Shown here one piece after another: positions 25,558 to 57,747 of a DNA stretch of 64,000 nucleotides. Numbering within the stretch: the first letter of the stretch is position 1; every line of letters starts with the position of its first letter. The translations under genes and the position numbers were made by a program. The notes below the pieces were generated by a model. The model did not search any database. It had not been told where the DNA came from and saw only the letters and a list, made by a program, of their open reading frames with translations. Origin of the DNA: a virus; IMG/VR virus record IMGVR_UViG_3300022746_000019, positions 26,008 to 90,007 of that record; one strand, 5' to 3'.

Positions 25558-26790
25558 CTACAAGTCCGTCCCATCAATCTCGCGGAACCGGCCTTCGGCC
25601 CACTGCCAATCCAGAGTCGCCTCGGCTGGCCCTGAGTTACGGCTGGCGACAACTCTCAACAGTCGGGTATCGTCAATTTCCTCGTCTTCACGCTGAAGCC
25701 CGAGAATAACGTCTGCGTCCTGGAAGAACGAGGACGAGTAGCCAATGGCATCCGCGGTTACTTTTCCGCCCTTCATCTTCCATGTCAAGACCTGGGTGGA
25801 AATAACTATGGGGAGTTGGTACTTCTGGGCAAGACGCTTGAGTGATCGAGTGATGTTGGTAAGAGCCTGAGGGGTGTTGGCCTCGCCGCTCTGTTCGTCA
25901 ATCATCAGGTAGACGCCGTCAATGAACACAATGTCTGGTTGGAGCGTCTGAATCTTGCTGGCAATACCAGATACTGTCTGGCCAGCGGCGGAGTCCACCA
26001 GCCAAAACTTGTGCTCCACATTGTCAAGGTTCTTGAGAATCCTCTGGTAACGGGCCTCTTCTTCTTGAGTCAGAGTTCCGGTTAAGAGCCTGTGGTGAGA
26101 GATTAGGGAGCGCATGGCGTCATATCGGTTGAGCTGCTCATGGTTGCTCATTTCAAAAGACTGAAACATAGGAACCTTTGACTGCTCTCGGTGAATGTTC
26201 AGCGCAACCTGCAACGCCAAGGTTGACTTACCTGTCTTGGGCGGGGCAATGATGACAACAAGCTGTCCGTCCTGCAGTCCGCTGGTCGCAGCGTCAATTG
26301 TCGGAAAACCTGTGGGAAGCCCCCTAAGACCGTTAGGAAGGTTCTTTCGCTCAACATACTCTTCCCAGCGCTTGAGGGGTTCATCCGTAAGATCGACGTC
26401 ATTGGTCTGGGTTAATCCGCCCTCTTCAAGGGATACAAGCCCGCGCTGAAGTACCAGCAGCGCCTTCTCGTGGTCCTTCTGCTTCTCCATGCTGTCGATT
26501 GCGTCGGACAACATCTTGGTTGTAGCAAACCGGCGCTGTGCGTCAAGAACAGAATCAATCAGGTACTCAAGAGAATCTTCGGAAGCTGCAAACTCATAAG
26601 TCGGATAGTTGGATTTGACCACATCCATGCTTGGGGATTCGCCGTACTTGACAAAATGTTCCCTGACGAATGTCCACATCCGCTGGTCTTCATCGTCAGC
26701 AAACCAACTGGTGTTTACGCCTCGGCTAAGCAGCGCTGAAACATCTCGATCGTTAATGGCTCTACTTAGGAGCCGGCGCTCATTGTTCAT
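25558..26790 (-). CDS. dnaB: DnaB-like replicative helicase
   Basis: PTGFPTID, APPKTGKS, SFEMS, FIDG, SLKRLA, STQ, QDADVI. Confidence 0.92.
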   Translation of the reverse strand: MNNERRLLSRAINDRDVSALLSRGVNTSWFADDEDQRMWTFVREHFVKYGESPSMDVVKSNYPTYEFAASEDSLEYLIDSVLDAQRRFATTKMLSDAIDSMEKQKDHEKALLVLQRGLVSLEEGGLTQTNDVDLTDEPLKRWEEYVERKNLPNGLRGLPTGFPTIDAATSGLQDGQLVVIIAPPKTGKSTLALQVALNIHREQSKVPMFQSFEMSNHEQLNRYDAMRSLISHHRLLTGTLTQEEEARYQRILKNLDNVEHKFWLVDSAAGQTVSGIASKIQTLQPDIVFIDGVYLMIDEQSGEANTPQALTNITRSLKRLAQKYQLPIVISTQVLTWKMKGGKVTADAIGYSSSFFQDADVILGLQREDEEIDDTRLLRVVASRNSGPAEATLDWQWAEGRFREIDGTDL

Positions 26791-40773: not shown

Positions 40774-42291
40774 TTAGGCGACGGTGACGGTAGTTCCGCC
40801 CTCAAATTGGCCAATCTTGATGATTACATATTCAGCGGGGCGCTGGAGTGCCACACCGATTTCGATATTAACCTCACCGGCGTCAATCGAAGAGAGGGTG
40901 TTGATGTCTTCGTCGCACTTAACAAAGAACGCCTGCTCGGGCTCGTCACCGCGAAGGCCGCCGCTCTGCCAGAACGAAGTGAGGAACTTCGAACAGATGT
41001 CGGTCAAATCACGCCACAGACGGCTGTCGTTAGGCTCAAACACAGCAAACTCGGTCAAGTCCGACAGAGCCTTGCGGAGGTAAATGAGCGTGCGGCGAAC
41101 CGAGATGTAGCGGTCAGCGTACCCACCCTTGAGGGTGCGAGCGCCCATAACCACAATGCCTGAGCCCGGGATGTAGCGGATAGCGTTGACCGGGGCAGCG
41201 GCAACGTTCAATGCGTCAAGTTCAGCGTTGCTGAGGGACGCGATTGAGACAGCACCAGCAATACGAGCGCTCTGTCCAGCGGGGGACTTGAACACGCCAC
41301 GCGAAATGTCGGTTGCTGCATAGAGGCCCAGAACCGCACCAGCGGCGCTGATGGTAGCCGTGGTTCCACGAGTCGGGTTGGTCGGGTCGTTGACCACAAG
41401 GCTCGGGTAGTAGACCGCTGCGTGGGATGACGGCGTGTACGACGAGGCAAGAGAAATTTGGTCATCAGGGGTACCCGGACCCGTATCAACAACGACGAAC
41501 ACATCTGCGCGACCCTCTGCGTAGGAAATGAGTTCGTTGACGTAAGCCGGCGTGTAAACACCCGCTGCGTTCAGGATAAGCGAGTTGCGAACCGAATCAA
41601 ACTTCGACACTTCGCCCGAGATCATGGACTCAGTAACGGGCTCTCCATCGGTGCCGCTGCTGAGGGTGACGGGGGTAGTGCCCGTAGCAGCCGGGTGGTT
41701 CTCGGTCAAAGCGGTGACAGTGATGTAGCCTGACGAAGAATTAACCACGTGTTCGACAAAACGGTCGTTGGTGGAGACGTTTGACACGGCGCTGTAGCGT
41801 TCGACAGAGTATGCCGCGGTGACGCCACCAGAGTAAACGGCGATGTCGTAAACCATGTCTGGGTCTCCCACGCCACGGTTGGCGTCGTAAGCATCCGAGA
41901 TGCTAATGGAAACCGAGTTACCCCAGCTGCCAGGGCTGATTGCCGAAACCGTCAGGCTAGCCGCAGGGGAGACAGCGTCGTCATTGAGGGTGGTGTGAGC
42001 AGGGGTCAACGAGAAGTCAGAAAGGACGCGCTGCACATAAGCCATAGAGCCGCCGTTCTGGAAGAACATCCAGACAGCGAGAGGCAAAAAGTTTGTGTTG
42101 CCGTTGTTACGGTTCCAACCGCCGAACAGGTTCTTGTACTGGCTCCATGAGTTAACGACGGTGGGTTCAATCGGACCCTGGTCGCTCGCTCCAATGAACG
42201 CCGCAACGGCAACAGATTCTGCCGTGACAACCGGTGCAATTGGATTAAGTGTCTCTTCTACGTAGACACCAGGCCGCTGGTAAATGGCCAT
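40774..42291 (-). CDS. Tail sheath protein
   Basis: YQRPGVYVEE, GVFKSPAG, GARTL, YISVRR, VFEPN, PAEY. Confidence 0.95.
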   Translation of the reverse strand: MAIYQRPGVYVEETLNPIAPVVTAESVAVAAFIGASDQGPIEPTVVNSWSQYKNLFGGWNRNNGNTNFLPLAVWMFFQNGGSMAYVQRVLSDFSLTPAHTTLNDDAVSPAASLTVSAISPGSWGNSVSISISDAYDANRGVGDPDMVYDIAVYSGGVTAAYSVERYSAVSNVSTNDRFVEHVVNSSSGYITVTALTENHPAATGTTPVTLSSGTDGEPVTESMISGEVSKFDSVRNSLILNAAGVYTPAYVNELISYAEGRADVFVVVDTGPGTPDDQISLASSYTPSSHAAVYYPSLVVNDPTNPTRGTTATISAAGAVLGLYAATDISRGVFKSPAGQSARIAGAVSIASLSNAELDALNVAAAPVNAIRYIPGSGIVVMGARTLKGGYADRYISVRRTLIYLRKALSDLTEFAVFEPNDSRLWRDLTDICSKFLTSFWQSGGLRGDEPEQAFFVKCDEDINTLSSIDAGEVNIEIGVALQRPAEYVIIKIGQFEGGTTVTVA

Positions 42292-42330: not shown

Positions 42331-42948
42331 TTACACGGGATTGAGCGACGAGGGGATGTCCCCAGTAATACCGTTAATAACGACTTTTTCGACAATCTTG
42401 TCGCTTACGCTGTCTGCCTGGGCGGGAGTCATTTCACTCACAATGCGGACAGTGAACAGGTTACGGAAAACGCGACGACCATCTTCAACATAGTTGATTT
42501 TGGCAAACGCGTCTAAGAACATACTGCGCTGAGCAGTTTCTGTACCCAAGTCATTGGGAACAGCGAGCTTCCCGTACTTTGCCGGGAGGCGGTTTCGCAG
42601 CATCTGCTGCAACAATGCGCGGTCATGGCGCGGGTGGCGCGACCAACTGCTGACTTGGTAAACTAGGTCGTAGGCAACCGGCATGTAATATGTATAGACG
42701 GTATCTTCCTGAGCGGGGATGGTGCCTAGGTAGTCTTTGTCAAACATATACCCAGAAGTCTGGCGTTCGTTTGCGGGGCGAATGTCCACCAAGTCAATGG
42801 TGATATACGGGTAGCGCTGCTGACGGATTTCAACATCTGGGATTGCGTAGAACACGTCTACTGGTCGTTCTGGCTGTTTATCGTCTGATACAGTCATCCC
42901 AGCAAACAGGTTCTTCAGCGCTTCATCCTCTGAAAGAACAAAACTCAT
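42331..42948 (-). CDS. Tail terminator / tail completion protein
   Basis: YPYITIDLVD..PVAYDLVYQV; immediately upstream of the sheath. Confidence 0.7.
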   Translation of the reverse strand: MSFVLSEDEALKNLFAGMTVSDDKQPERPVDVFYAIPDVEIRQQRYPYITIDLVDIRPANERQTSGYMFDKDYLGTIPAQEDTVYTYYMPVAYDLVYQVSSWSRHPRHDRALLQQMLRNRLPAKYGKLAVPNDLGTETAQRSMFLDAFAKINYVEDGRRVFRNLFTVRIVSEMTPAQADSVSDKIVEKVVINGITGDIPSSLNPV

Positions 42949-43271
42949 AAAGACTCCATAATTGTGTCTACGCTGTTTTTGAACTCAGCGGCTATGGCTT
43001 CCTCTATTAATTTTGGCACTTGGGCCGAAAAACGTCGAATAACCGCCGTCGGAGTGTGCTTAGAGTTTCCGTACTCCAGCCCCTCCACTAGTTCCTTTTG
43101 AGCAGGTTCAATGGTTACCTTGAAGTCGCCCTTAACATCTTGAACCGAAACCGCTTCGATAGCATCTTCTGGCCAGCCGGCCTCTTCCGCCATCTCTTTC
43201 AGTTTCCTAGTAAGACTTGGAACAGATCTTGACACAATGTTTTTTACCATGTCATCGTACCCATTAACCAT
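42945..43271 (-). CDS. Neck/tail completion protein
   Basis: GWP..LEYG..P motif; start reassigned to ATG 43271 because the upstream sequence is a structured RNA. Confidence 0.65.
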   Translation of the reverse strand: MVNGYDDMVKNIVSRSVPSLTRKLKEMAEEAGWPEDAIEAVSVQDVKGDFKVTIEPAQKELVEGLEYGNSKHTPTAVIRRFSAQVPKLIEEAIAAEFKNSVDTIMESL

Positions 43272-43390
43272 AAAAACCCTCGTTTCACCTAGCCCACGAT
43301 GCCCTATTGCTACGCTTACGCAGAGGCATCGCATACTCCTTACGGAGGGGGCAAGATAAAGCAAGGGTTTTCATGGTCTCGCACGAGACC
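43267..43390 (-). ncRNA. Unrecognised structured RNA (long closing stem plus multiloop with GNRA hairpins) overlapping the neck-gene RBS/start
   Basis: About 27-bp interrupted stem with G-U pairs valid only on the minus strand; inner CTCC-GTAA-GGAG and GCGATGCC/GGCATCGT arms. Confidence 0.7.
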
Positions 43391-43404
43391 TCTACAAGAA
43401 TAAC

Positions 43405-43429
43405 GAAAAGGCAGCGATTACGCTGCCTT
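43405..43429 (-). terminator. Intrinsic terminator after the lysin genes
   Basis: AAGGCAGCG-TAAT-CGCTGCCTTTT. Confidence 0.75.
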
Positions 43430-43442
43430 AACGCTCGTTATT

Positions 43443-43886
43443 TTAAGCCGGAGCTGGTCCGCTGAGTTTGCCTGAAAGGTCGTATCCCTCAAAGTAAGTT
43501 GACCAACCTAGGTAGGTTCCACCCCACCGCGCCTTTAATCCCGCTCCAGACATTAGACCAATCATGTTGTCCACAGGAAGGTCGGTAGTCCAAATATAGT
43601 CAGCTTTATGAGCCTGCAAAGCTACATGGCCGTGGGCACCAATATCCCAGAAGTGAGGGGCTCCGATAGGGGCGTCAAGCGGGTTATTGTGTTTGTACTT
43701 CTTTGGGATTCTGGCCCACTCGGCAATAGCGTCTGTGCTGCTGCCCGGTAGACCCCAAGCCATACGACACACCTTTAGGCAATACCCGTGAATGGCAAAG
43801 GTTTGACTACCGTCGTTAATTTTGGTCGATCCGGCCATGGACTGACGCATCATCCAGTCAGCGGCAACGATTCCGTTTGTGCGCAC
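43443..43886 (-). CDS. CHAP/NlpC-P60-like peptidoglycan hydrolase
   Basis: GYCL..CR catalytic Cys; APIGAPHFW..HGHVAL; YLGWS. Confidence 0.8.
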   Translation of the reverse strand: MRTNGIVAADWMMRQSMAGSTKINDGSQTFAIHGYCLKVCRMAWGLPGSSTDAIAEWARIPKKYKHNNPLDAPIGAPHFWDIGAHGHVALQAHKADYIWTTDLPVDNMIGLMSGAGLKARWGGTYLGWSTYFEGYDLSGKLSGPAPA

Positions 43887-43888
43887 TA

Positions 43889-43981
43889 TTACCTCTTATT
43901 AATCTTGTCGTAGTGCCGCTTGTCCAGCTTAATTTTTGCCAACGCGCCAATAACTACTGCGGCTAGGATGGCAATAATCAC
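43889..43981 (-). CDS. 30-aa membrane peptide between the lysins
   Basis: Own translation MIIAILAAVVIGALAKIKLDKRHYDKINKR; GTGA overlap with the upstream stop. Confidence 0.45.
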   Translation of the reverse strand: MIIAILAAVVIGALAKIKLDKRHYDKINKR

Positions 43982-44505
43982 GGCTTCTTCTTTGCCGGCG
44001 CTTTCTTTGCTACGGCCTTCTTGACCGGTGCGGCTGCCTTCTTGACAGCAGGCTTACGAACAACGGGCTTGCCAGCCTTGCTGTCCCAAATAACCTTGGG
44101 GTCGGGGCGGTAGGTGGGGTCTGCGTGATGACCCTTCAGTCCATTGAGGCCCTTGTCGTAATCGACAACCTGTGCCTTTGCCAGCGGTGCCGAATCAGGG
44201 CAGCCAATTGCAACAGCGTGGACGTGATTGGAATCGAAACCTTGATCCATCGTGCGGTACCAAGCGGCAAAGCCAGCGTCCTTGAGTGCCTTGACCATCT
44301 TTGCGCGACGGGCTTCAGTCATCAGGCGAACGGAAAAATCAACGACACCTCCGCCGTCATGCGTGCCAGCGGAGGCTGCAACACCGCCCTTGTTGTACGA
44401 GCCCTGAGTGATGCGGAACGCAAAGCCCGCAGTCTTTTCGGCCCACTTAATCATTTCGATGGTGCGGGCATCAAACAGGTACCCACGGAAGTTAACAGCA
44501 GACAT
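43978..44505 (-). CDS. Zn-peptidase (M15/LAS-type) endolysin domain with Lys/Ala-rich tail
   Basis: QGSY..SAGTHDGGGVVD..GFAAWYR..HVHAV. Confidence 0.8.
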   Translation of the reverse strand: MSAVNFRGYLFDARTIEMIKWAEKTAGFAFRITQGSYNKGGVAASAGTHDGGGVVDFSVRLMTEARRAKMVKALKDAGFAAWYRTMDQGFDSNHVHAVAIGCPDSAPLAKAQVVDYDKGLNGLKGHHADPTYRPDPKVIWDSKAGKPVVRKPAVKKAAAPVKKAVAKKAPAKKKP

Positions 44506-44720
44506 TACTTATCGCTCTTCTTAATCTTCTTGATAATCTTGGCGTCAATTTTCTTGTCTTCGGCCATGGTCTTTGGCTTCTTCTTGGCTCCGTGAGCCTT
44601 GTCAGCCTTCTCGAACTTAGCCTTTTCGTCCTTGTCGAAGCCAGCCTTTTTCAGCATGGCTGCGTCCTTCTTCTTGTCCTTGGACTCTGTGTACTTGCCC
44701 TTTTCGAATGGCTTAGCCAT
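44505..44720 (-). CDS. Small Lys-rich protein
   Basis: 71 aa, AGGAG RBS. Confidence 0.7.
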   Translation of the reverse strand: MAKPFEKGKYTESKDKKKDAAMLKKAGFDKDEKAKFEKADKAHGAKKKPKTMAEDKKIDAKIIKKIKKSDK

Positions 44721-44729
44721 GTGTACTCC

Positions 44730-45005
44730 TTAACAGTCCCAAGCCCGAAGCGACTTATTGATTCGGCTATTGGGGTCTTTCGCGGTTTTTGCGGATGTGT
44801 TTTTTTTCTTCATGCCTTCCATACGACTGCAAAATGAGTCGCGGCGGGCGGCAGAGGTCTTGGATTTTGCTGCTTGAGCCTTTTTTACAGGAGGCTTAAG
44901 GTCCGACCCTGGGTTGGCTTTTTCGTAAGATTTGCGGCCCTTTTCGTTAAGGCCACCCTTTGCGTTCTTGCCTTCTTTGCGCTGCCATGCTTCAGATTTA
45001 GCCAT
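44730..45005 (-). CDS. Small basic phage protein (DUF6321-like)
   Basis: AWQRKEGKN..GGLN..GR..Y; RRDSFCSRM; SLRAWDC. Confidence 0.8.
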   Translation of the reverse strand: MAKSEAWQRKEGKNAKGGLNEKGRKSYEKANPGSDLKPPVKKAQAAKSKTSAARRDSFCSRMEGMKKKNTSAKTAKDPNSRINKSLRAWDC

Positions 45006-45186
45006 TCTTTTTATGCCAATCTTTGGTTGCTTTAACTCCCTGAGCGATGGTCTTTGCGCCGGCCTTTTTGGTCAAATTGACTTTGTCGTACTTGCCATTA
45101 TTACCAGCGTGATTGACTATTACCTCGCCCTTTTTGTTCTTTTTAACCGTGTGCTTTTCCCCAGCAGCTTTGAATGTCTTAGACAT
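44998..45186 (-). CDS. Small Lys-rich protein
   Basis: 62 aa, coupled to neighbours. Confidence 0.65.
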   Translation of the reverse strand: MSKTFKAAGEKHTVKKNKKGEVIVNHAGNNGKYDKVNLTKKAGAKTIAQGVKATKDWHKKNG

Positions 45187-45362
45187 TATTTATTTTTCTT
45201 TGACTTACCGGCTTCGCTTAGAGCAATTGCGATGGCCTGCTTTTTGGACTTTACCTCAGGTCCCTTGCCAGGTCCCGGCTTACCGGATTTAAGTTTGCCA
45301 GCCTTGTACTCGCGCATAACCTTTTCGACTTTGGCATCGCCCTTAGGCTTCTTACTTGCCAT
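45186..45362 (-). CDS. Small basic protein (DUF6496-like)
   Basis: Own translation KVEKVMREYKAGKLKSG...VKSKKQAIAIALSEAG; GGAGG RBS. Confidence 0.8.
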   Translation of the reverse strand: MASKKPKGDAKVEKVMREYKAGKLKSGKPGPGKGPEVKSKKQAIAIALSEAGKSKKNK

Positions 45363-46371: not shown

Positions 46372-48530
<2,159 letters not shown>

Positions 48531-49151: not shown

Positions 49152-50205
49152 TACCGTCCAACGCCTCTCGGTAGTACTTCAAGTTTATTTGAATACGCTC
49201 ATCATTTGGGGCTAAAATGGCCGCCCGTTCCCCGTATTCAACTGCTTTAGAGGCGTCGCCTAAATGATACGCGGCAAGCGCGGACAAATCGTATGGAAGT
49301 TCTCCCCATGCCCATGCCTCATTAATGTAGACAAGCGGCTTCTCAGTGATTGACAGAGCGGCCTCGCCCGCCATCAGGCATTCCGCCCAATTCCCCATAT
49401 CGTGATGGTACCGCGCCAGTTCAACCAACGGTTCTCTGAGGTGCGGCGCTTCCTCACAAGCAGTGGTTAAGTGCTCAAGTGTGTACTGTAGTTCACACTT
49501 TGCTAGGTATCGGTAGGCGGCAGATCGCTCTGCGTCCCACTTTGCTGTGGGGAGTTCGAGATACCGCCTAAATTCTCTGGCAGCCTCATCTGTGCGACCA
49601 TAAAAGAATAACTCTCGGGCGAAGTAGAACGCATTACGGTCATCGGATGGGTCTTCTCGAACTGACAACTCGAGCAGGGGCAGGTATTGACTCCGGGGCT
49701 TCGATGAATCCGCATGATGGTGGATTTCCATGGAAATCCAGTCCTGCACCTCTTCCTGACCGTATGACACCAACACCTCGTGAACGGGGTGCTTCCAACG
49801 ATAACCAATGCGACTGTGGATTTTGTCGCCACCGTATTGGAGACCGGGTGATCCGTCAGGATTCCATGACCATGTGTATTTGTATCGTGGGCGAGTAACT
49901 CCCGGCTTTACGGCCTCTAGGGTATCGCGCCAACCGTCTACCAATACCTCGTCCATATCAAGGGCGATGCAGTAGTCAATGTCGATGGGCAAAGCCGCTA
50001 AAGCGGCATTTCGTGCATCATCGAACCGGAAGGGCGATACCCGTAGAGGTACTACATTGATGCCGAGAGACTCGGCCAGTTCTACCGTCTTGTCTGTAGA
50101 GCCTGTGTCTGCAATCAGCAGGTAATCTGCGGCCTTTGCGGAATCATGCCAGGCTTGTACAAATTGCTCCTCATTGAGGGCAATCGTGTAGACGGCAATC
50201 TTCAT
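49120..50205 (-). CDS. Glycosyltransferase family 2 with C-terminal TPR repeats
   Basis: IALNEE, ADTGSTDKT, FDDARNAAL, LDMDE, VHE; helical TPR-like tail. Confidence 0.92.
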   Translation of the reverse strand: MKIAVYTIALNEEQFVQAWHDSAKAADYLLIADTGSTDKTVELAESLGINVVPLRVSPFRFDDARNAALAALPIDIDYCIALDMDEVLVDGWRDTLEAVKPGVTRPRYKYTWSWNPDGSPGLQYGGDKIHSRIGYRWKHPVHEVLVSYGQEEVQDWISMEIHHHADSSKPRSQYLPLLELSVREDPSDDRNAFYFARELFFYGRTDEAAREFRRYLELPTAKWDAERSAAYRYLAKCELQYTLEHLTTACEEAPHLREPLVELARYHHDMGNWAECLMAGEAALSITEKPLVYINEAWAWGELPYDLSALAAYHLGDASKAVEYGERAAILAPNDERIQINLKYYREALDGNARIPSGGSV

Positions 50206-50240
50206 GTAGTAGTCCGTAAATGTTGGGTTTCCCCAGCTGA

Positions 50241-51330: not shown

Positions 51331-51527
51331 TTGCGGGCCATATCGAATCGCCAAGGCGTGATGTTGACCGAAACAACAGTGACCCCAAGGGACTCCGCCA
51401 GTTCTACCGTCTTGTCTGTCGAACCTGTGTCCGCGATGAGGATGACGTCAGCCTCTCGGGCCGACGCCACCCATCGCTCGACGAACTGCTCCTCATTCAG
51501 AGCAATCGTGTAAACCGCTACTTTCAT
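51309..51527 (-). pseudogene. Truncated GT2 glycosyltransferase (first ~72 aa only)
   Basis: MKVAVYTIALNEEQFV...DTGSTDKTVELAESLG...RFDMARNAALAAM*, near-identical to the N-terminus of 49120-50205. Confidence 0.85.
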
Positions 51528-51541
51528 GCCCTCAGGTGTCA

Positions 51542-56900: not shown

Positions 56901-57747
56901 GCGTACCAGTATTAGTGATAGGACCAGTAACGCCAACTACACCAGAAGACCCCGTAGGTCCGGCAGCGCCCGTTGCTCCTACGGGTCCCGTGGGACCCAT
57001 AGGGCCAGTCTCACCCGTAGCACCAGTGGGGCCAGTAACCGTTGAATCCGCGCCCGTTGCACCCGTAGGACCAGTAGGCCCTGTGGGGCCAACTTCTCCC
57101 TGAGGACCGGTAGGTCCAGTAGCGCCCGTAGGACCAGTCACACCTTGGATGCCTTGGGTGCCCGTAGGGCCAGTAGGACCAGTCGGTCCTGTGGGGCCCG
57201 TAGGTCCTGTTACGGTTGAATCCGCGCCAGTAGGTCCTACAGCACCTGTAGGACCTGTAGGACCCATGAGGCCCGTTGCTCCAGTGGGACCTGTAGGTCC
57301 TACAACACCTCTAGGCCCGGTCGGGCCTGTAGCTCCTGTAAGGCCATTTGGGCCTGTATGGCCAGTAGGACCTGTTGGTCCTGTAATGCCCTGTGCGCCA
57401 GTAGAGCCCGTAGGTCCTGTTGCTCCAGTAGGTCCAGTCTGCCCGCGGAGACCTTGCGGACCAGTAGCGCCGCGAGGACCCGTAGGTCCCGTGGGGCCAG
57501 TCACATTGGAAGCAGCGCCCGTCGGGCCGGTATCACCAATAGGTCCAGTCGGACCGACAGATCCTGTAGGTCCAGTGGGGCCAGTAGGGCCTTGCGCACC
57601 GCCTTGACCAGGTCCAATCTCAATGATGCTTGAGGGGGTGTCTGGTCCGGTTGGAGTGGTAATTGTGAGATTGATTGGTGCTACAGGCGTGACAACAATT
57701 GGTTCACACGTGCAAGGATTCGGGTTACATACGTTGCAACTAGTCAA
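53929..57747 (-). CDS. Large mosaic collagen-like fibre protein
   Basis: 1272 aa; N-terminal G-P-T repeats, a capsid-cement-like segment, repeated [11 protein letters not shown] units, [11 protein letters not shown] segment, WMISGNGLT end. Confidence 0.85.

Follow-up and report, generated by a model that had tools for sequence, protein, structure and literature searches.

This study concerns a predicted RNA element on the minus strand of a 64,000-nucleotide (nt) stretch of viral DNA, namely positions 26,008 to 90,007 of the IMG/VR virus record IMGVR_UViG_3300022746_000019. The whole stretch is called the window, and all coordinates refer to it unless another locus is named. The element lies at 43260-43400, ahead of a run of neck and tail genes, and is best read as the 5' leader of the neck/tail messenger RNA (mRNA), in a reduced form of a cassette composed of a leader and a small gene. 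Sequence conservation indicates that the element is a conserved leader joined to the remnant of the small gene; its 5' arm is a conserved box, and its 3' arm the leftover 3' end of the small gene together with the ribosome-binding site (RBS) of the first gene of the run, here termed geneB. It is probably a cis-acting leader whose long helix occludes the geneB RBS. Our preferred, still tentative, account is translational coupling by RNA unfolding, in which the helix would shut the geneB RBS and translation of a short upstream open reading frame (uORF) would open it; the role of uORF translation as the opener is proposed with slightly more reserve. A switch timing tail synthesis was among the options raised in a preliminary description of this DNA, and gating of the tail operon is likewise what we infer.

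The fold of the element is real and lies far beyond chance. In the 141 nt analysed, the long helix can be read directly from the sequence, with the 5' arm ACCATGAAAACCCTTG-C-TTTATCT-T-GCCC (43377-43349, minus strand) facing the 3' arm GGGC-T-AGGTGAA-A-CGAGGGTTTTTATGGT (43295-43267, minus strand), and the minimum-free-energy fold contains exactly this helix, paired as the preliminary description had written it. The native minus strand reached -67.0 kcal/mol, compared with -40.2 ± 3.8 kcal/mol for 200 dinucleotide shuffles (z = -7.13; 0/200 as good), a folding energy beyond shuffled controls. The plus strand of the same stretch was weaker (-48.2 kcal/mol, z = -5.1) and the helix holds four G-U pairs, which bears out the earlier proposal of a strand-specific fold; the sense strand exceeded the antisense by 19 kcal/mol both in the window and in the closest collected relative (L026). 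The helix comprises ~27 base pairs (bp), arranged as 16 + 7 + 4 bp and interrupted by two 1x1 mismatches, and is therefore a near-continuous duplex of at least ~20 bp with a perfect 16-bp segment. In the minimum-free-energy fold it encloses a multiloop formed with the hairpin CTCC-GTAA-GGAG (43347-43336) and the arm GCGATGCC(T)/(G)GGCATCGT (43332-43296). The multiloop with GNRA loops described previously is thus present in the window's fold, but the inner loop can be drawn as either GTAA or TAAG, and the interior arms and GNRA-type loops are not conserved features of the family because the coding sequence of the small gene fills this interior in relatives. A small upstream hairpin (hairpin 1, GGTCTC-GTGC-GAGACC) had been regarded as a competitor for the 5' end of the helix. 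It exists, sharing just 3 nt (ACC) with the long helix, and a fold constrained to contain it is 3.1 kcal/mol weaker (-63.9 vs -67.0); it is not merely a competitor but a conserved, covarying element.

The start signals of two reading frames are buried in this fold. The 3' arm holds, as had been claimed, the Shine-Dalgarno (SD) sequence and start codon of the first neck/tail gene, GAGGG at 43281-43277 and ATG at 43271-43269, both within the perfect 16-bp segment. Every base of the geneB SD and AUG, including GAGGGUUUUUAUG, had an unpaired probability of 0.00 in the window, and positions -15 to +2 of the geneB RBS paired with the 5' box at a mean probability of 0.94 (0.67 in L026). The preliminary description missed the uORF, and also, as the alignments indicate, the identity of the 5' arm with a conserved leader box and the conservation of hairpin 1. 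By sequence, the layout runs GGAG, 6 nt, ATG 43329, 14 codons and a TGA at 43287-43285 inside the 3' arm, 13 nt before ATG 43271, so that, judged by sequence only, an upstream frame with its own SD and ATG ends inside the masking helix. Its signals are equally closed (unpaired probability ~0 for SD and AUG, 0.00 for the AUG), the SD lying in the CTCC/GGAG hairpin and the AUG in the GCGATGCC/GGCATCGT arm; L026 has an arm equivalent to this inner arm over the AUG. Since all start signals of the window's element are paired at equilibrium, geneB would not be startable independently from the folded RNA. The features of the region are as follows:

43408-43429, minus strand: terminator-like hairpin AAGGCAGCG-TAAT-CGCTGCCTT with a T-rich tail, from the terminator scan; it ends the upstream gene 43443-43886.
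43391-43407, minus strand: conserved post-terminator stretch, TTCGTTATTCTTGTAGA in the window and TTGCTTTATCCTT... in the family consensus, from the leader alignments.
43375-43390, minus strand: hairpin 1, GGTCTC-GTGC-GAGACC, a conserved, covarying stem with a C-RTGC-G loop, from RNAalifold and the unfitted alignment.
43349-43377, minus strand: 5' arm of the long helix, composed of the conserved leader box ACCCTTGC...CTTGCC and a window-specific 5' extension ACCATGAAA, from the fold and the leader alignment.
43336-43347, minus strand: CTCC-GTAA-GGAG hairpin, from the fold; the invariant GGAG at 43339-43336 is the SD of the small ORF.
43285-43329, minus strand: 14-codon uORF MPLRKRSNRASWAR, from ATG 43329 to TGA 43287-43285, with the stop within the 3' arm, from ORF parsing and the leader alignments.
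43296-43332, minus strand: inner arm GCGATGCC(T).../...(G)GGCATCGT, from the fold; the start codon of the uORF is buried in it (AUG unpaired probability 0.00).
43267-43295, minus strand: 3' arm of the long helix with the geneB SD GAGGG (43281-43277) and ATG (43271-43269), from the fold and pairing probabilities.
42945-43271, minus strand: geneB, 108 amino acids (aa), first gene of the geneB-geneC-tail sheath run, from the ORF list.

Conservation of the element was examined with geneC as the anchor. In total, 104 related loci with 39-65% identity in geneC were collected from IMG/VR and the JGI metagenomes; L026 is the closest of them (65%), and closer relatives exist as proteins (P0002-P0012, 65-78% identity in geneC). 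A leader profile built from ten leaders, which match by construction, matched 89 of the 104 loci, once in each and always at the same position and in the same orientation. These 89 loci correspond to 63 distinct sequences including the window, of which 61 were parsed, and the set forms 32 clusters at 80% identity; L007 and L028 were left out of parsing because the script called no geneB in them. Several of the 15 loci without a leader match have too little upstream DNA. In one sub-branch of relatives, seen at L011:2405-2700 and also in L012, L020 and L022, the small ORF and geneB are in place and the leader is divergent, without the hairpin 1 and box consensus. As a separate observation, geneB of L028 (1276-1501) carries an internal deletion of ~190 nt relative to the near-identical L029 (445-860) and L032, which is either a natural variant or an assembly artefact.

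The family shares one order of parts from 5' to 3': a GC-rich terminator hairpin with a T run, the post-terminator stretch (consensus TTGCTTTATCC), hairpin 1, the box (consensus TACCCTTGCGAAGTAC-CTTGC), a CTCC-loop-GGAG hairpin over the SD of the small gene, and an ATG or GTG. Along its whole length, as far as GGAG (43339-43336) and ATG 43329, the window's leader can be aligned with the family, and GGAG and the start codon are invariant in 32/32 leaders. On the 32 leaders, RNAalifold drew hairpin 1 with 6 pairs, 4 of them with compensatory changes. In an unfitted alignment, that is, a plain MAFFT alignment of 14 full-length sequences onto which the L041 structure was projected, 92.5% of the hairpin 1 cells pair and 4/6 pairs change on both sides; its loop is C-RTGC-G in 28/32 clusters. 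The CTCC/GGAG hairpin pairs in 80% of cells of the same alignment, which is gappy there. In 57 of the 61 sequences, the aligned start codon opens an ORF of 39-58 aa whose end lies -17 to +4 nt from the geneB start, as ATGA, GTGA, TAGTG or overlaps of -14/-17 nt. The encoded protein is visibly conserved, with an N-terminal (I/V)DKPSDxEF-type motif, a hydrophobic C-terminal segment and a basic tail (e.g. L041:2025-2171 and L048:2012-2164). The clade that carries the cassette consists of uncultured myoviruses with the look of actinophages.

Several comparisons suggest that the long helix is ancestral and selected. In relatives, the pairing partner of the box is the final 30-45 nt ahead of the geneB start, across 130-200 nt of coding sequence. 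Full-length partition-function folding gave at least 8 pairs between the box and the 3' arm in 24/32 clusters, the helix is present in the minimum-free-energy folds of all 13 examples shown (13/13), and with 40 nt of extra 3' context a long-range partner of the box, forming helices of 9-25 pairs with bulges, is kept in 30/32 clusters. Within the 30-nt segment at the geneB start, the box duplex ranked in the top 5% of control segments in 18/61 sequences, with a median rank of 0.15 against 0.5 expected. The pairing is specific to each lineage: a box with its own 3' arm averaged -17.3 kcal/mol, compared with a mean of -14.0 kcal/mol for non-cognate combinations (0/20,000 permutations as good, p = 5e-5), and when foreign natural boxes were swapped in, the expected pairs fell from 12.4 to 7.6 and at least 8 pairs were expected in 122/256 combinations vs 24/32 with the own box. 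Co-changes occur at the same leader columns (AUAUAGU/ACUAUAU in L008, CCGUGC/GCACGG in L041, AUUUGCG/CGUAAAA in L099 and UUUAUCU/AGGUGAA in the window), about six of them clearly different, and the register of the helix varies between lineages. The unfitted alignment pairs in 68.6% of cells, compared with 35-54% when the partners are slid, and its covariation score is 0.210 vs 0.146 ± 0.012 for shuffled alignments (0/500 as high); for the long helix itself, 61% of cells pair and 7/21 pairs change on both sides. Conservation and covariation in relatives, the check proposed for the element beforehand, were thus found for the leader, hairpin 1 and the long helix.

The window's element represents a lineage in which the small gene has shrunk while its frame is kept. 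The small ORF comprises 14 codons in the window, 22 in L026 and 30 in L029/L032, compared with ~50 in relatives, and the 39-58 aa protein has been lost in the window's phage and in L026. The uORF peptides of these reduced lineages are unrelated to one another and to the family protein, and no homologue of the small protein was found elsewhere in the window's genome (best E = 0.67). In all reduced lineages seen, the frame is open up to the geneB start. Although their peptides are unrelated, the window and L026 retain 16/16 aligned pairs of the long helix, with 1 pair changed on both sides and 8 on one side, and L026 has the same three-arm shape (z = -3.1 sense, -1.1 antisense). Because the small protein is gone and the helix, SD, ATG and open frame are kept, what selection maintains would appear to be the architecture of the RNA and, probably, its translation. 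A 139-aa ORF from TTG 43364, whose translation the preliminary description had named as counter-evidence, was also considered and rejected: its frame is not conserved, and only 1-14 in-frame codons are open before the geneB start in 6 relatives.

In the proposed mechanism, the helix would serve as a translational gate that permits no independent initiation at geneB. A ribosome would load on the uORF during RNA synthesis, probably before the masking strands are made, and translate the 14 codons to the TGA inside the 3' arm, thereby unzipping that arm. The geneB SD and ATG, within and just past the 13 nt after the stop, would then become exposed to the same ribosome or be re-used by it through reinitiation. 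Coupling is favoured because the SD, the spacing, the ATG and the open frame to geneB are kept in all reduced lineages and the peptide is not, because full-length relatives have the classic overlapping stop and start, and because precedents exist in f1 VII/IX, MS2 coat-lysis and rpmI-rplT.

A number of observations weigh against this account. The uORF SD and AUG are themselves fully paired at equilibrium, so that kinetic (co-transcriptional) access is needed and is assumed here. RNAalifold on the plain MAFFT alignment of the 14 full-length sequences returned only a spurious 6-pair helix and missed the long one, which stands against conservation of the helix by compensatory change as described above. 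Strand preference across the family is weak, with the sense strand better in 20/32 clusters (Wilcoxon p = 0.09, not significant), and, the clusters being related to one another, the permutation p-value counts too many events as independent. Occlusion of the geneB RBS is found in the window; family-wide, with 40 nt more of 3' context, the box covers this RBS (P >= 0.4) in only 14/32 clusters. Where the RBS is not reached, the 3' arms end 16-74 nt upstream or lie beyond the geneB start, and two clusters have no long-range partner. The reduced subclade is represented by two sequences only, the window and L026. Because the box reaches the geneB RBS in only part of the clusters, RBS occlusion may not be the ancestral role of the helix; given that a partner is usual and RBS cover partial, the universal feature would be the enclosure of the small ORF in a domain bounded by the helix.

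Coupling has a main rival, with which it may coexist, in an RNase III-type processing site, where cleavage of the long helix would separate the tail mRNA from upstream transcripts and free the geneB RBS. We consider this possible but rather unlikely. The ~27-bp helix of the window spans about two helical turns and exceeds what masking of an RBS needs; helices of 9-25 pairs between box and 3' arm in 30/32 clusters, regardless of RBS reach, suit a role of the duplex as such, and the locking of all start signals at equilibrium makes an external opener attractive. Cleavage offers no reason for lineages without the small protein to retain SD, ATG and a frame open to geneB, and both the length of the helix and the placing of its internal loops vary. 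A regulator of the phage's own could also act on the leader. The RNA would then be a platform for a dedicated phage regulator (a nut/put-type antitermination site, or the operator of a late translational repressor or activator) that times the neck/tail genes. Such a platform would be built from the post-terminator GCUUUAUCC stretch, a spacer that varies, hairpin 1, whose C-RUGC-G loop is almost invariant, and the long-range helix. This reading has a small chance of being correct. Slightly less probable still is a gate by transcript isoform of the T4 type, in which read-through transcripts that carry the 5' arm would be silent for geneB, and a (late) promoter 3' of the 5' arm would give the translated transcripts. 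The terminator directly upstream and the full occlusion of the geneB RBS agree with such a gate. Its promoter is where it meets difficulty: no sigma-70-like promoter was found in 43377-43271, by a scan that covers this promoter type, no motif of the leader is repeated in the genome in the manner of a phage promoter, and the interior is a translated gene in relatives, with its own SD 3' of the box.

The strong fold might also be a by-product, if an internal deletion had joined complementary segments that existed before and left a functionless relic. A relic would agree with the loss of the small protein, of which no homologue is found at other places in the genome, with the unrelated uORF peptides of the window and L026, and with a sample of only two reduced sequences. 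This explanation is nevertheless improbable: the helix predates the deletion, all 16 aligned pairs shared with L026 are kept despite 9 substitutions within them, pairs were added in the window to give the perfect 16-bp segment, and the window and L026 both retain an inner arm that covers the AUG. Far less probable is an independent non-coding RNA (ncRNA), riboswitch or ribozyme with a conserved core. The very low folding energy, the multiloop, the GNRA-like loops and the failure to match a known family invite such a reading; yet the interior is protein-coding in 57/61 relatives and varies from 14 to 58 codons, it has no conserved unpaired core, and the element has no promoter-terminator pair of its own, contains two ribosome-binding sites and occurs in one copy per genome. 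From the three options in the preliminary description, a cis-acting regulatory or processing signal therefore fits; neither a free-standing ncRNA nor a ligand-sensing switch built on a conserved core is supported. A DNA-level inverted repeat, such as the ends of a small mobile cassette or a protein-binding palindrome, is similarly remote. Inverted repeats do flank the small gene, and the strand preference across the family is not significant, but 79 of the 539 pairs in the fitted duplexes are G-U compared with 4 A-C 1x1 mismatches, the sense strand is the better by 19 kcal/mol in the window and L026, and the repeats hold the same position in all loci and are single-copy in the genome. Among these explanations, coupling by RNA unfolding is the one we retain.

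Searches for known families and similar sequences were consistent with a leader family that is not in Rfam, of a mechanism class that is already known. The Rfam covariance models gave 0 matches at gathering score over the whole 64-kilobase (kb) window, which agrees with the preliminary statement that the element could be matched to no familiar riboswitch or ribozyme class. Sub-threshold matches around the element (best E = 0.7-5.8) were far under the gathering scores; the best one overlapping it was SmY on the plus strand (E = 2.2, 15.0 bits vs a gathering score of 39), and SIB_RNA matched just upstream (E = 0.7, 18.9 vs 56 bits). Rfam gave 0 matches at E <= 0.1 on 12 related loci, and ARAGORN found 0 tRNA or tmRNA genes in the window. 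A 2.3-kb region had no DNA match among 50,697 phage records, and the 151-nt element had only a 33-nt chance match (E = 2) in these records. The 108-aa geneB protein used as a query found no match in IMG/VR, a scan of genome contigs found no relatives, and a 24-nt IUPAC pattern of the leader matched only the L026 contig in IMG/VR. The element is single-copy in its own 90-kb IMG/VR virus record. A position-weight scan of the post-terminator motif over this 90-kb genome found no second strong site (own score 16.6, next 11.5), so this stretch is not a recurring promoter motif; hairpins with an RTGC loop were not enriched (12 seen vs 11.4 expected). Another such hairpin, GGCTC-GTGC-GGGTC, stands in the same genome at G000:C1:24775-24870 (plus strand), ~1.2 kb ahead of the window start; ~50 nt later a GC-rich terminator hairpin follows, and then TTTCTTTCATCC, so that leader-like pieces occur there in another order and on the opposite strand. 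A leader-peptide transcription attenuator was rejected as a candidate, as the only terminator-like site lies upstream of the element, and the T run of the 3' arm is paired and followed by paired bases. A general literature search returned nothing specific to the leader family, from which absence from print is not claimed.

The local genes all lie on the minus strand in the order 43978-44505, 43443-43886, terminator and element, geneB, geneC and tail sheath. The tail sheath gene (40774-42291) matches Pfam PF17482 and phrog_23. The geneC product (205 aa, 42331-42948) is tail-terminator-like, with 27-28% identity to proteins of Streptomyces myophages; the matching protein of GiJojo is labelled 'tail terminator', those of two other phages 'minor tail protein' and the rest hypothetical protein. 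Pfam and PHROG assigned no family to geneB, geneC, the small proteins of 5 relatives or the geneB of 2 relatives. The element had been placed right after a lysin terminator. A terminator-like hairpin is indeed present at 43429-43408, but the lysin identity was not confirmed: a PDB sequence search with the two upstream proteins (43978-44505 and 43443-43886) gave nothing meaningful, and the 147-aa upstream protein matched solely phrog_12298, 'membrane associated protein' (E = 1e-7). Further upstream, at 44505-45362 (minus strand), a series of small, very lysine-rich ORFs of 58-91 aa is found, one of which matches DUF6321 (PF19846, E = 5e-24) and the C-terminal ends of much longer PHROG families. 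Long arrays of a 9-nt periodic GGxCCxGTx repeat, encoding collagen-like Gly-X-Y tracts on the minus strand, occupy 47086-48432 and 56911-57042 and dominate the repeat scan. Two direct repeats of 68 and 48 nt with 81-82% identity, 1322 nt apart, are located at 50051-50206 and 51373-51528 and indicate a duplicated gene cassette.

The element is a clean case, found in nature, of mRNA structure surviving the loss of the gene inside it. It defines a covarying leader element outside Rfam, at the boundary before the tail genes in a sizeable clade of uncultured phages, and lends itself as a model of RBS occlusion over a distance, of coupling or of processing in actinophage-like viruses. If the leader were a platform for a regulator, >60 distinct contigs would share a new class of cis-regulatory phage RNA, of which the window would hold the minimal, protein-free form. 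For annotation, neither a 139-aa TTG-initiated ORF nor a new ncRNA should be called at the element.

The predicted architecture has parallels in several known systems. RNase III sites occur in phage T7 and in the lambda N leader, and translation of E. coli adhE depends on RNase III. Like these sites (intergenic in T7), the element shows a duplex of about two turns with small internal loops, located between gene blocks and with an occluded RBS; unlike them, its predicted duplex is built from segments 80-200 nt apart and not from a local hairpin. In phage T4, occluded RBSs are activated through late transcripts, as in gene e, soc and I-TevI. The element resembles these genes in an RBS locked in a helix on long transcripts and in its late-gene context, and differs in that no sigma-70-like promoter was found between the arms and that the interior is a translated gene in relatives. 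Coupling by RNA unfolding is modelled in PMC12548453, with f1 genes VII/IX, MS2 coat-lysis and E. coli rpmI-rplT as examples. As in the systems treated there, one strand of a helix carries the SD and ATG of the downstream gene and pairs with a strand further 5', the upstream ORF terminates inside or beside this helix, and stop and start codons overlap in relatives (ATGA, GTGA, -14, -17). Unlike in those systems, the masking strand here is in the untranslated leader, 5' of the SD of the first ORF, so that the helix encloses the whole ORF; the upstream 'gene' of the window is a 14-codon remnant, and the coupling is a predicted one. The element is also similar to the ORF-centred units of mRNA structure described in PMC5318159, in that one ORF of an operon mRNA is set apart by a helix as a structural domain; compared with the units presented there, the closing helix of this leader is conserved, covaries across a phage clade and outlives its ORF.

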